Below, in pieces: positions 1 through 8,711 of a stretch of DNA of 64,000 nt; position 1 is the first letter of the stretch, and every line of letters starts with the position of its first letter. A model generated the notes under the pieces. It was not told the origin of the DNA, did not search any database, and saw only the letters and a program-made list of their open reading frames with translations. The position numbers and the translations under genes were made by a program. This DNA is from Myxococcales bacterium (GTDB taxonomy: Bacteria > Myxococcota > UBA727 > JABDBI01). The stretch is from the NCBI GenBank assembly GCA_023898405.1, contig CP060221.1, positions 1,719,381 to 1,783,380 of the forward strand. Reading direction: 5' to 3'.

Positions 1-3000
1 GCTAAGAACTATAGGTCGTAGTTTATCTGCCGGTAAATTTAAATTAGGAATTTCTTCAGGAAGATGCGATAGCCAATAATCAAGCATTTTTTTTGCTTGT
101 GGACTGGCTAATAATTTGTTTTGCCAATTGAGAAAATCCAAATAGCTTGTTTTGAGTGGAGCTAGCTCAAGTTGCTGGCCTTTTTTCATTGTTTCATAGA
201 GCTCGAGGAGTTCTTCAATGAAAGTAAAGGTGGAGATTGCATCGGAGATAATATGATGAACGGCTTTCATCATTACCCACCGATCTTCGCCAAGCTTAAA
301 TAATCTGAAACGCATCAAAGGATCGCATGCTAAATCGTAGGGTTTGCGATATTCAGCAATGATCATTTGATAAATTTCATTCCAAGAATAATTTTCTACG
401 TTGATAAGCTTAATATCTTCTTTTATTTGATCAGATATGCACTGTACAGCACGCCCATTTTTTTGCACAAAATTAGCTCTGAGACTTGGATGTCTTTTTA
501 TTAATTTTCGAACAGCTTCAAACATTATCTCAGGTTTAAGTTGAGTTTTTATTTCAACTGCACCACCGATATTATAAGCAAAGCCATCTGGGTGTAGATG
601 TTTGAGAAACCAAAGCGCTGTTTGATTGTGGGTGAGTGGGTATTCCTTGGTATCTGTGAAGACTTCGATAGCCTCCGTGGTCTGTAAAAATTGAGAGTTA
701 AGCAGTTCTTCCATTTGTTGATAAAGCTCAAGGCATATTTCTTTTATGTTGGTAGAACTAAGAAGTTTTACTACAGGAGGAGCAACTTTAAGTTCTCGTT
801 GTAATCGCGCTCTAAGTTCTATGGCAAGAAGAGAGTCAAGTCCGAGCTCATTTAGATTTTGCTCTACGTTAACTTGACTAACTTTTATACGAAGCACATT
901 TGAGACGATATGAATGAAATAGTCTTGAAGTTCTTTTAAACGCTCTTTAGCTGATAAAGAGCTAAATCGATCAATAAAATTTTCCGATTCATCAGTATTT
1001 TGGTTTTTTTGTTCAGCAGCAATGTCTCCTATCAGACATGGAATTTGGGGATACCAGTTCAAAAATAACGGCCAATCTATAATTGTTGCTACACAAATTT
1101 GAGACTTGTCTTGAGATATAATTCTTTCTAAAACCTCCATTCCAGCTTCGGGAGATAGAGAGCTCATTCCTCGGCTATTCCGATAGTGATCGATAAGTCC
1201 CAATTCTTCTATCATTCCGACAGCCCAAGGTCCCCAATCGATCGATAAAGCAGGGAGTCCTATGCTTCTTCTATGATGAGCTAAGCAATCGAGAAAAGCA
1301 TTGCCCGCTGCATAATTACTCTGTCCTGATGTTGTAAGAAGTGAGGCTATGGAAGCAAACAAAATGAAATGATCAATGGGCTCATCGATAAAAACCTTAT
1401 GAAGGTTGGCTGAACCAAAAACTTTTACATCATATGCAGAATCGAAAATATCTTGGCTCATGTTTGATATGAGAGTGTCATTTACAACGCCCGCGAGATG
1501 AAAGATGCCTCGAATAGGAGGGAGAAAAAGTTTTTTATAATTTTCATGCCATTCTCTTAAAGATTTTTTATCTCTGACATCTACCGATGCATAGCTTATA
1601 TGTGCTCCCAAGTTTTCTAACTCACGAATAAATTTAATGGACTCAAGCGCGCGTTTATCGGTGCAACATAACCAGTCTTTTCTTTTGGGAATTATGGAGC
1701 GATTCATGAGAATTAATCGTCGTGCACCGCGTTTTATTAAGGTGCGACATATAAGCTTTCCTAGGGCCCCAAAAGCACCTGTGATCAAATAACTTCCATC
1801 CGCTCTAAGGTTTAAAGGAAGCGGAGGAGTAAGGTGCTGAGCTTGCTCTAGGCGATTGACATAACGAACACCATTTCGGTAAGCAACTTCAGTTTCATCG
1901 AATGAGCTTGCCTCATTGATGATGAGTTTAGCGATGACTTCATGCTTGGTTTCGAGAGGATCGATATCAATAATTTTTCCTTTATGCTGAGACATCTCTT
2001 GCTGCCAAAGAACTCGGCATATTCCCCATAAAGATGCAGCAATAGGTTGAGGTTTATCTGGAGAAACAATTTTTTGTGTGGCTTTTGTTAGCACAATTAG
2101 TTGAGAGGGATTCTTATCTTTAAGAATTTCTTGGCAAAGACTTATCAACGGATAAGGAGCAAAATTTTGTTTTGAATTTAAATCATCTTGACGGCACGAT
2201 GAAAATTCTGGTGCATCAAGCGGACATAGATAGATAAATTTTTTATTGGGAAAATTTGCGAGCAGTTTAAAAAAATTATTGAGGCTTTGCTGGCAATTAA
2301 AATTGATAGTTGCAGAATTGTTTTGCTGATTAAAACTAAATGTATCGGCTAAGGCGACGTTAAGGTAGTTTTTATTGCTATCTTTTAGGTGAGCGCACAA
2401 AGTTTTTGATAAAGAAGATGAGTCAGAAAAAATTATCCAGCTTGAATCATCATGATGTGTTGCTGATAGCTCAAGTGGGTTTTCAAGCCATTTAATCTCT
2501 GTGAGCCAATTATCTATGGTTGATATTTGAACTTTTGTCTGAACTTTATCGGTATTGGCTGCTTTGAATTCTTTTATTTGAGCTAATAGTTTTCCTTCTG
2601 TGTTAAAGATAGAAATATCACCGATAATTTCGTCGCTGTTTCTTGATGAAATAGTGGCATGAGCCCAAATAGAATCTTGGGTAATCTTTAAGGCATTTAT
2701 TTCTTTTATAGTAAGAGGAAGCCTGATGCCTTCTTTTTGCTTTTTGGTAACACTCATCTCTGATGTAAGAAGAGTTTGGAAACATGCATCAAGCAAAGCT
2801 GGATGAAAGTGATAGTCTGTTGAATCATTTTTTAGATTAAAGTTTAGAGAAATTTTTGCTAATGATTCCTTATCTCCTACTACGACCTCTTCAATAAGAG
2901 CAAAGGAAGAGCCATAGTGATATCCCATATCAGCTAATTTTTTATAACACTGGTTTTTGTTAAATTGAGTAATGCATCTGTCAAAGATCGATTGAATGTC

Positions 3001-7092: not shown

Positions 7093-8711
7093 CCACATAA
7101 ATTATTTTCTACAAAGGTTGTAAATCGCGTTGAGGCAAAGGAATCAGCCTGAGTTATAAAAGGCTTTGATTCAGCAAGTAAGAGAGCAGCGGTACAGGTT
7201 CCTATAGTAAACACAGCTTTTCTAGCAAATGATTCCAGATAAAGAGAACTATCATCTTCTGATTTATGAATTGCATTCATAACCTTTTCACTGATCAATT
7301 GAAGTCGAGATTTTAATATCCGGCATGCGTCAGTTTCGTCAATCATCAGGTTGTTGGCACGCTCGCATAATTCTTTTAATAAAATAGTGAGTGCTCCTTC
7401 CTTTCGTTGAGCACGTAACAAATCGTGGATCAAAATATTGGTGGTACCTTCCCATATAGGAAGCACCTGTGCATCGCGCAATAGTTGAGGAAATTCTGTA
7501 TCTTCCAGATAGCCAATACCTCCCACAGCTTCCATAGCTTCGCTTGTTGCATAGATAGCCCATTTGGCAAGTATAATTTTTGCGATGGGAATAAGAACTC
7601 TGAGCAATGGTCCATCTTTTTCGCTGCTCGTACCTTCCTCTATACTGCCTAAGAGGCGGGCGATTTCAAAGCATAATGCCACTGCACCTGTTCTTTGAGC
7701 ATCAATATGAGCGAGTGTTTTTAAGTGAAAAGGGTGGTCGATGATTGCTTTTCCAAAGCTATGGCGAATTTTGGCATAGGCCAGACAAGAAAAAAATGCT
7801 CTATTGATGATCGATGCTGATGCGAGGGCATTGTAGTAACGAGTGATATTGAGTATACCCGACGCGCAAAAAATTCCTCTTCCTTTAATACCTATCAGCG
7901 TGGCTGTTGCGCCTTCGAGTCTTACTTCGGCAGTTGGGAGTGCTTTTGTGCCAAGTTTATTTTTAAGGCGCTCAATTTTAATGCCTTCCATGAGTTGTTC
8001 GTTTTGCCATACTTTTAGCAAGAATAAACTAGGTCCCTCATTGGGAATTTGCGCTAAGACCAAGGCGTATTCATTATCGATAGCTGAACAAAACCATTTG
8101 AGTCCATAAAGCCGATAAATTTCTTGATCACTTTCTTTGCGTGCCAGGGTGGCATGAGTCTCAATTTTTTTTAAGTCGGATCCACCACTACGTTCGGTCA
8201 TCCACTGCCCACAAAATGCAGCGCTTTCCTCTTTGCCAAGCAATTCTTGCAAAACTTGTTCCTTCAAGCTCTTGGGAGCATATTCATTTAAAACTTTGAT
8301 AGCGCCGTCGGTCATTGCTAGAGGGCAGCTTAGATTTGATGAATAGGCTGAAAACATCAGTTGCATTGCACTTTGAACGATTCTTCTTCCATGACGAAAG
8401 CGCTTATCATAGCCGATACCCACCAAACGATTTTGTTGAGCAAATTTTTTTATTCGTTGCCACTCATGGGAAAGATGGAGCTTGTCAATGCGATGACCAA
8501 AAACATCGCAATTTTCTAAAAAAGGGGGATTTTTATCTGCGCGGTTCCCCAGCTCCATTAATTGGCTCACTATGGCATCACCAAGATTTTCTAGTTGTGG
8601 TGCGGCTAAAAGATAGGTCTCTTGCGGAAGAAGGCGGCGCGTAAGACCGAGCAAGAAAGCATCCTTGCGAAAGAGATTATCATAGTTTTTGTAATGAGTT
8701 TGGCTGAACAT
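7077..8711 (-). CDS. Acyl-CoA dehydrogenase family protein (AidB-like)
   Basis: 544-aa ORF with ACAD-like middle and C-terminal regions (WMTERSGGSD, GGIGYLEDTEFPQLLRDAQVLPIWEGTTNI). Family call from memory only. Confidence 0.7.
   Translation of the reverse strand: MFSQTHYKNYDNLFRKDAFLLGLTRRLLPQETYLLAAPQLENLGDAIVSQLMELGNRADKNPPFLENCDVFGHRIDKLHLSHEWQRIKKFAQQNRLVGIGYDKRFRHGRRIVQSAMQLMFSAYSSNLSCPLAMTDGAIKVLNEYAPKSLKEQVLQELLGKEESAAFCGQWMTERSGGSDLKKIETHATLARKESDQEIYRLYGLKWFCSAIDNEYALVLAQIPNEGPSLFLLKVWQNEQLMEGIKIERLKNKLGTKALPTAEVRLEGATATLIGIKGRGIFCASGILNITRYYNALASASIINRAFFSCLAYAKIRHSFGKAIIDHPFHLKTLAHIDAQRTGAVALCFEIARLLGSIEEGTSSEKDGPLLRVLIPIAKIILAKWAIYATSEAMEAVGGIGYLEDTEFPQLLRDAQVLPIWEGTTNILIHDLLRAQRKEGALTILLKELCERANNLMIDETDACRILKSRLQLISEKVMNAIHKSEDDSSLYLESFARKAVFTIGTCTAALLLAESKPFITQADSFASTRFTTFVENNLCGHFSM

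Follow-up and report, generated by a model that had tools for sequence, protein, structure and literature searches.

A probable polycyclic tetramate macrolactam gene cluster in an uncultured bacterial lineage labelled Myxococcales

A large hybrid polyketide synthase-nonribosomal peptide synthetase (PKS-NRPS) gene runs off the left edge of a 64,000-nucleotide stretch of contig CP060221.1 (assembly GCA_023898405.1, positions 1,719,381 to 1,783,380 of the forward strand), which we call the window. What does this synthase make? A preliminary description of the sequence had answered with a modified polyketide-amino acid or lipid product, probably uncharacterized. Comparison with public sequences indicates that the window very probably contains the upstream part of a gene cluster for polycyclic tetramate macrolactam (PTM) biosynthesis. 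The earlier answer correctly named a polyketide-amino acid hybrid, but it missed the PTM family, and the hydroxylase beside the synthase is not a lipid enzyme. "Uncharacterized" holds for this organism's own product and not for the compound class, which is well characterized and whose novelty had been overstated.

The synthase occupies a minus-strand frame that stays open for 2083 codons, from position 6249 to base 1, and continues past the window edge. At 39% GC, an open frame of that length cannot have arisen by chance. Of two possible ATG start codons, that at 6072 is the likelier: it is preceded by GGGA, gives an N-terminus that fits the homologs, and is used by the public gene call. A frame of more than 2000 codons, with ketosynthase (KS), acyltransferase (AT), dehydratase (DH), ketoreductase (KR) and acyl carrier protein (ACP) domains leading into a condensation (C) domain at the edge, had already been described, and Pfam recovered every one of these domains, together with the C-terminal extension of the KS, in an uninterrupted frame (KS 277 bits, AT about 250, KR 193, ACP 48; feature coordinates are collected in Table 1). 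The C match in the window covers profile positions 3–218 of 456.

The fragment in the window is 100% identical to P0001 (USN50164.1, MCA9506887.1), a protein of 3089 aa whose source is labelled "Myxococcales bacterium" at NCBI and whose source contig is 2,515,055 bp long. We followed the gene past the edge on Logan contig L001, which is 100% identical to window positions 1–9000 in reverse complement and extends leftward (L001 position x = window position 11551-x). The adenylation (A) and termination domains, which the preliminary description had placed on a leftward extension of the contig, were recovered there as A-PCP-TE (PCP, peptidyl carrier protein; TE, thioesterase). Pfam on P0001 gives a single module in the order KS-AT-DH-KR-ACP-C-A-PCP-TE, encoded by an uninterrupted open reading frame (ORF) of about 9.3 kb, with a full-length C match of 365 bits. 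Neither an enoylreductase (ER) nor a methyltransferase domain was found by Pfam in the whole protein. All catalytic motifs that we checked in the translation are intact, the DH histidine motif included.

Relatives of the synthase outside its own clade align at 52–57% identity over 99–100% of the query, and their source names are "HSAF biosynthetic NRPS/PKS" (Lysobacter; HSAF, heat-stable antifungal factor) or "FtdB". For proteins bearing the HSAF synthase or FtdB name the range is 52–55%, and identity to the synthase of the Lysobacter enzymogenes locus is 54%. At the place in the AT domain where the Lysobacter HSAF synthases have VPYHSAKM, the window synthase has VPYHSPKM. The adenylation pocket reads DVGEIGSIDK (motifs FSFDVFAG, VDCVEFVPA, ILIVGSDAW, NSYGLTEATIDS and PNQKID), which, with pocket positions assigned by GrsA numbering, we take to be the code for L-ornithine. 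Two Lysobacter HSAF synthases have the same pocket residues at the positions where motifs were recovered.

Immediately beyond the synthase on L001 are two genes for FAD enzymes, OXa and OXb. Our PTM comparison set comprised 80 loci from species-representative genomes, and homologs of both OX genes lie downstream of the synthase in nearly all of them. A neighbor-joining (NJ) tree of 131 OX proteins linked to PTM clusters places OXa in one clade with L. enzymogenes OX1 and OX2 (PprB type), and OXb in another with L. enzymogenes OX3 (PprA5 type). The 24 lone-OX proteins, all from loci bearing an alcohol dehydrogenase (ADH) gene, form an exclusive clade that does not contain OXb. The nearest named neighbors of OXb come from Chitinimonas, a Pseudomonadales metagenome-assembled genome (MAG) and Gynuella, all of which have two OX genes and no ADH.

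Two more genes follow OXb on the same strand. The first encodes an arginase that passes the equivalog cut-off of TIGR01229 (267 bits against 228) and has intact metal-binding motifs (GGDHS, DAHGD and SFDLDALDP). The second encodes an Sfp-type phosphopantetheinyl transferase (PPTase) with intact GIDIE and WTKKEA motifs. Six more metagenome loci (L003, L083/84, L085/86, L087, L088/89 and L090) have the same unit, a divergent ftdA gene beside ftdB-pprB-pprA-arginase-PPTase; the L090 contig begins at the synthase and shows the unit from ftdB onward. The unit is kept in these seven distinct loci at synthase identities down to 56–67%, and the closest species representative is L003 at 63%. Among the PTM loci sampled, a full-length PPTase homolog was seen in the window clade only. 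Arginase homologs, 35–37% identical to those of the window clade, stand inside or beside the PTM clusters of Myxococcales MAG-83 (L007 22931-23818) and two Lysobacter genomes (L005 6161-7051 and L019 6459-7358). Ornithine supply is therefore clustered with a PTM synthase in at least three separate lineages and is not unique to the window clade.

Divergent from the synthase lies the gene that the preliminary description had called a fatty-acid hydroxylase/desaturase. The gene, its orientation and its three histidine boxes (HRVSH, HGIHH and HRLHH) stand, but the protein is a PTM hydroxylase of the FtdA/SD type. Its ATG at 6214 is preceded by an AGGAG ribosome-binding site; the longest possible ORF starts at TTG 6160. 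Homologs, 42–67% identical, adjoin the synthase in most of the 80 PTM loci, on its upstream side in nearly all; over all PTM loci compared, the window protein is 42–70% identical to such synthase-adjacent homologs. The Lysobacter enzyme SD, which is aided by a ferredoxin reductase, has been shown experimentally to carry out the final 3-hydroxylation, which is needed for antifungal activity (PMC7287984). PtmD is a confirmed C-3 hydroxylase of PoTeMs (PMC11724479), and Harper et al. name these enzymes C-25 hydroxylases (bioRxiv 10.1101/2024.01.22.576670). We infer that the C-3 and C-25 numberings refer to one ornithine-derived carbon. Assignment of the protein as OlsE was rejected at an NCBIfam score of 125 bits against a cut-off of 475; the two share a related fold and chemistry on an ornithine-derived carbon. 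The gap between ftdA and ftdB presumably holds both promoters. A consensus promoter scan of positions 5900–9300 found 6 promoter-like sites against a mean of 9.1 in shuffled controls, and a terminator scan of the same interval gave nothing useful.

We are confident of the PTM assignment, which rests on the architecture and homology of the synthase, its putative ornithine code, the downstream cyclases, the hydroxylase and the conserved gene unit, all of them read from sequence. Several points weigh against it. The ornithine code was read directly from motifs aligned to GrsA numbering, and both trees, that of the OX proteins and that of FtdB, were built by simple NJ and carry no support values. 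When we examined the genes between the Lysobacter arginase and SD, the expected site of an SD partner, the candidate ORFs matched Lysobacter loci only. An unlinked ADH, P450 or other tailoring gene may lie elsewhere in the 2.5 Mb genome. The product is predicted from the genes, and Harper et al. hold synteny alone to be unreliable for predicting PTM products (bioRxiv 10.1101/2024.01.22.576670).

If the cluster does encode a PTM pathway, which PTM would it make? The published scheme starts with lysobacterene A, the product of the synthase. A PprA5 enzyme (OX3 in Lysobacter) then forms the first cyclopentane, PprB (OX1/OX2, FtdC) forms the second, and an ADH (FtdE/OX4/IkaC) adds the third ring; clusters of the ikarugamycin type have one PprA5/6 enzyme and an ADH instead (Harper et al., bioRxiv 10.1101/2024.01.22.576670; PMC11724479). 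Along these lines, the PKS module of the window synthase would work iteratively to give two polyene chains, and the NRPS module would join both chains to the two amino groups of a carrier-bound ornithine. Release and tetramate formation would then yield lysobacterene A. The OX3-like enzyme OXb (PprA5 type) would close the first five-membered ring and the OX1/OX2-like enzyme OXa (PprB type) the second. There would be no third ring, and with FtdA hydroxylating the ornithine-derived carbon in a late step, the product would be a hydroxylated, 5/5-bicyclic, alteramide-like PTM. The arginase would supply ornithine from arginine, and the Sfp-type transferase would activate the ACP and PCP domains.

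The bicyclic product is predicted because the locus has no FtdE/OX4/IkaC-type ADH, an enzyme that defines the 5/5/6 and 5/6/5 subtypes rather than the PTM family. A tblastn search with L. enzymogenes OX4 (E ≤ 1e-3) found no such ADH in the window, L001 or L003; none appears in the gene calls of the other sister loci, and no sister locus has an ADH within 10 kb. By tblastn with Lysobacter OX4, an ADH was found in 38 of the 80 genome PTM loci. The cluster is thus predicted, by analogy, to encode a dedicated 5/5 pathway with ftdA, closest to group 12b.2 of Harper et al. The alternative that survives best is a tricyclic (5/5/6) or further tailored PTM, made with the help of an ADH, P450 or other tailoring enzyme whose gene lies elsewhere in the genome. 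Harper et al. note that genes for PTM-active enzymes at times stand apart from the core cluster (bioRxiv 10.1101/2024.01.22.576670), and the ADH search reached about 80 kb of the 2.5 Mb genome. However, the sister loci are uniform in having no ADH nearby, and OXb groups with the enzymes of Chitinimonas, Gynuella and the Pseudomonadales MAG, where two OX genes occur without an ADH. Harper et al. place Chitinimonas and Gynuella in groups 12b.2 and 12b, and infer for group 12b a pathway dedicated to 5/5 products (bioRxiv 10.1101/2024.01.22.576670). We regard a tricyclic or further tailored product as unlikely, although not negligibly so, and retain the 5/5 prediction.

Comparison with named systems places the cluster close to these two taxa. 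Chitinimonas sp. BJB300 (12b.2; L042) and Gynuella sunshinyii (12b) share with the window cluster the genes ftdA and ftdB, a cyclase gene of PprB type followed by one of PprA5 type, and the lack of an ADH. Chitinimonas is the closest named relative (synthase 59–60%, FtdA 62% and PprA 75% identical), but its ftdA is co-directional with the synthase and that of the window is divergent. The Chitinimonas locus also lacks the arginase, the PPTase and an AhpC-like gene (described below), whereas the window cluster has all three nearby. The HSAF cluster of L. enzymogenes (L005) shares the synthase architecture, ornithine code, SD/FtdA hydroxylase, OX1/2-like and OX3-like cyclases and a nearby arginase homolog; arginases contribute to HSAF yield in Lysobacter (PMC6288370). 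Unlike the window cluster, the HSAF cluster has two PprB paralogs and an OX4 dehydrogenase that closes a six-membered ring to give the 5/5/6 system. Its synthase is 54–55% identical to that of the window, the GC contents are 70% and 39%, and no counterpart of the Lysobacter ferredoxin reductase that partners SD was found at the window locus. Myxococcales MAG-83 (group 12e; L007) shares the order-level NCBI label, an arginase gene after the PprA gene, and an upstream ftdA. It differs in synthase (52% identity), GC content (61%), the presence of an ADH, the absence of a PPTase and its place elsewhere in the NJ tree of synthases. The ikarugamycin cluster (IkaA, IkaB and IkaC) has a homologous iterative PKS-NRPS and the same precursor, lysobacterene A (PMC11724479). 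Ikarugamycin-type loci nevertheless combine a single PprA5/6 cyclase with an ADH to give a 5/6/5 system, and the lone-cyclase clade excludes OXb.

On the other side of ftdA, an AidB-like acyl-CoA dehydrogenase gene converges on the hydroxylase gene, and the two 3' ends overlap by 16 bp. The preliminary description had counted it as part of the cluster. Its domains and convergent orientation are as described, but it is absent beside the unit in L087 and L088/89 and from the other PTM loci sampled, and its membership falls. The protein has an AidB-like architecture but is no AidB equivalog, at 216 bits against NCBIfam NF008594 (cut-off 545). Among the PTM loci sampled, a syntenic homolog, 71–82% identical, is present only in L003, L083/84 and L085/86, the three closest relatives, and no AidB-like gene was found in any other. 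The left flank that carries it also holds genes for a pyridoxamine-phosphate oxidase (PNPOx) and a TLC-like transporter, plus a patatin-like gene in two of the three relatives; L087 and L088/89 have other left flanks and lack the AidB-like gene. Because the gene unit occurs there without it, and the other PTM loci lack it too, we judge the dehydrogenase to be probably a conserved syntenic neighbor and not a cluster gene. That it might instead be a lineage-specific tailoring or precursor enzyme is suggested by its position: in four related genomes (the window, L003, L083/84 and L085/86) the gene lies beside ftdA, and the convergent 3' ends overlap. This seems improbable for a gene that keeps company with the flank genes (PNPOx, TLC-like and patatin) and that, being more conserved than most cluster genes, behaves as a housekeeping neighbor; the loci that keep ftdA and ftdB-pprB-pprA-arginase-PPTase intact without it point the same way.

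The same sister loci bear on the history of the cluster. Its GC content is 0.388, against 0.395 in the remaining window sequence, and L083, L003 and L085 rank alike in divergence whether flank genes or cluster genes are compared. Because of this match in composition and this parallel divergence, the cluster appears to be old and vertically inherited at its present site. The same two observations rule out recent horizontal transfer. A crude NJ tree, built from 28 synthases, puts the window synthase in a clade of metagenome sequences only, separate from the Gram-negative group 12b taxa, Lysobacter and the actinomycetes. The clade is not listed in the catalog of 302 clusters of Harper et al. (bioRxiv 10.1101/2024.01.22.576670), which has MAG-83 as its sole Myxococcales member. 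The relatives of the PolA encoded in the window are all uncultured, the nearest named being Myxococcota or "Deltaproteobacteria" MAGs at 47–62% identity; placement of the lineage rests on these PolA relatives and the NCBI label "Myxococcales".

Could such a cluster be a decaying, silent relic in a shrinking genome, making nothing? Mobile-element debris lies nearby (an IS481 remnant, an IS5-like fragment and an IS1595 transposase), and Harper et al. warn that inactivity may be common among PTM loci (bioRxiv 10.1101/2024.01.22.576670). Against this, the synthase ORF runs for 9.3 kb without interruption, the synthase, hydroxylase, arginase and PPTase keep every catalytic motif that we checked, and retention of the unit in seven loci at such low synthase identities is hard to square with lost selection. 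We consider a relic very improbable. It is hardly credible that the locus is another PKS-NRPS system, such as one for a lipopeptide or a modified ornithine lipid, that merely resembles PTM synthases: OlsE, an ornithine-lipid hydroxylase, is the best NCBIfam match of the hydroxylase, but at 125 bits it falls far short of the 475-bit cut-off, the synthase matches HSAF/FtdB synthases along its whole length, and both downstream enzymes lie inside the two PTM cyclase clades.

Table 1. Features of the putative PTM cluster and its immediate neighbors. Positions are those of the window unless L001 is given.
Feature	Position	Strand	Basis or remark
Synthase remainder (second half of C, then A, PCP, TE)	L001 11551-14748		Outside window
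OXa, 542-aa FAD enzyme resembling phytoene dehydrogenases	L001 14753-16381	Same as synthase	Outside window
OXb, 580-aa FAD enzyme resembling phytoene dehydrogenases	L001 16407-18149	Same as synthase	Outside window
ftdB-type iterative PKS-NRPS, codons 1-2024 of 3089	1..6072	-	Open frame, Pfam, 100% identity to P0001
NRPS condensation domain, N-terminal half, from aa 1809; motif HHIISDA; cut by window edge	1..648	-	Pfam PF00668
ACP, aa 1719-1780; motif GLDSL	733..918	-	Pfam PF00550
KR domain, aa 1426-1617; motifs GAFGALG, SNYAAGNAF	1222..1797	-	Pfam PF08659
DH domain, aa 901-1171; motif LADHRIENNIVFPAAAY	2560..3372	-	Pfam PF21089 + PF14765 (PKS_DH_N, PS-DH)
AT domain, aa 541-857; motifs GHSTGE, VPYHSPKM	3502..4452	-	Pfam PF00698
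KS domain, aa 11-387; motifs DTACSSSL, EAHGTSTP, NIGHTEAAAG	4912..6042	-	Pfam PF00109 + PF02801
Divergent ftdB/ftdA intergenic region, 141 bp	6073..6213	.	ORF coordinates
ftdA/SD-type PTM hydroxylase, 292 aa	6214..7092	+	PF04116 (FA_hydroxylase), 95 bits
AidB-like acyl-CoA dehydrogenase, 544 aa	7077..8711	-	Pfam AidB_N + ACAD middle and C-terminal domains
IS481-family transposase remnant, 127 aa, N-terminal HTH (helix-turn-helix) only	8796..9179	-	NF033577 positions 2-117/284, 62 bits vs cut-off 224

Beyond the PPTase gene, L001 encodes an otubain-like protein, a SulP-carbonic anhydrase fusion, an AhpC/Redoxin-family protein and a resistance-nodulation-division (RND) efflux pair. The AhpC-like gene (about 150 aa, L001 23412-23870, left of the window) was located in L001, L083, L084, L085, L087, L088 and L003. 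It lies 0–3.6 kb from the PPTase gene in every clade locus that extends past the PPTase, in three arrangements. Among the other sampled PTM loci there was one weak match, in Actinokineospora (L016, 39% identity). From its position, the gene may be functionally linked to the cluster, for example in redox self-protection, or it may reflect residual synteny. The otubain-like protein (358 aa, L001 19936-21012), encoded between the PPTase and SulP-carbonic anhydrase genes, has a weak Peptidase_C65 match. It is found in the window genome only, with no homolog in any sister locus, and its deubiquitinase-like fold would suggest a eukaryotic target.

To the right of the AidB-like gene, an insertion of 7.3 kb (window 8712-15983) parts it from the patatin-like gene; the corresponding gap is about 130–170 bp in L003 and L083. 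The IS481 remnant of the preliminary description was recovered there as a truncated NF033577 match, at a position just outside the end coordinate 8711 given earlier. Pfam found no rve/DDE catalytic domain in it, and it is a neighbor and not a cluster gene. The insertion also holds an IS5-like DDE_Tnp_1_2 fragment (11514-11777), an IS1595-family transposase (13728-14381) and a 529-aa ankyrin-repeat protein (12039-13628). ORFs 9834-10307 and 10496-11413 encode hypothetical proteins with signal-peptide-like N-termini; neither these two nor ORF 9086-9418 had family matches.

Several other proteins encoded in the window bear on the lifestyle of the host. Two patatin-like phospholipases, a class-3 lipase and a beta-helix protein with a Chlamydia PMP-like repeat, encoded at 15984-17207 (-), 43379-44794 (+), 55361-57262 (-) and 51109-53058 (+), look like a set acting on membranes or surfaces. 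A 407-aa membrane protein (17532-18755, +) matches the TLC ATP/ADP transporter family at 68 bits and MFS_1 weakly. It is shorter than the 491-position TLC profile, is 76–83% identical in relatives and always adjoins the PNPOx gene. Together with the ankyrin-repeat and otubain-like proteins, the patatin-like, TLC-like, class-3 lipase and PMP-like proteins suggest, from their sequence families, interaction with eukaryotic cells. The preliminary description had spoken of a reduced, intracellular-type genome. The source contig measures 2.5 Mb, and the genes just listed, suggestive of contact with eukaryotes, are not proof of an intracellular habit. Literature on reduced-genome Myxococcota in activated sludge offered nothing specific to this lineage or to PTMs.

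Elsewhere in the window, a full-length match to bacterial RNase P RNA class A (39022-39449, -) scored 291 bits, and no tRNA genes were found in the 64 kb. The gene at 29904-33250 (+), followed by a 326-aa ORF, encodes the large subunit of a molybdopterin oxidoreductase in the xanthine dehydrogenase / 4-hydroxybenzoyl-CoA reductase family; the protein scores 778 bits against TIGR03194, for which the cut-off is 995.

Known PTMs, among them HSAF, ikarugamycin and the alteramides, are antifungal and cytotoxic, act on eukaryotic cells, and are wanted in agriculture and medicine. The locus belongs to a known class. What is new is an uncatalogued FtdB clade, seen in metagenomes only and in a small-genome lineage, whose cassette carries its own arginase and PPTase. 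With its own ornithine supply and carrier-protein activation, the compact cassette should therefore suit heterologous expression. A broader reading is doubtful: a genome-reduced, uncultured lineage labelled Myxococcales would have held on, at one chromosomal site and over long divergence, to a PTM cassette made self-sufficient by its arginase, its PPTase and a linked AhpC-like peroxiredoxin, and the macrolactam would be a eukaryote-directed effector or a defensive metabolite central to a host-associated or predatory life. The linked clade-specific genes may then provide a new PTM scaffold or self-protection. That a secondary-metabolite cassette of 16 kb has been kept in a lineage whose large contig is 2.5 Mb hints, as a working hypothesis, that the compound matters to the life of these bacteria.

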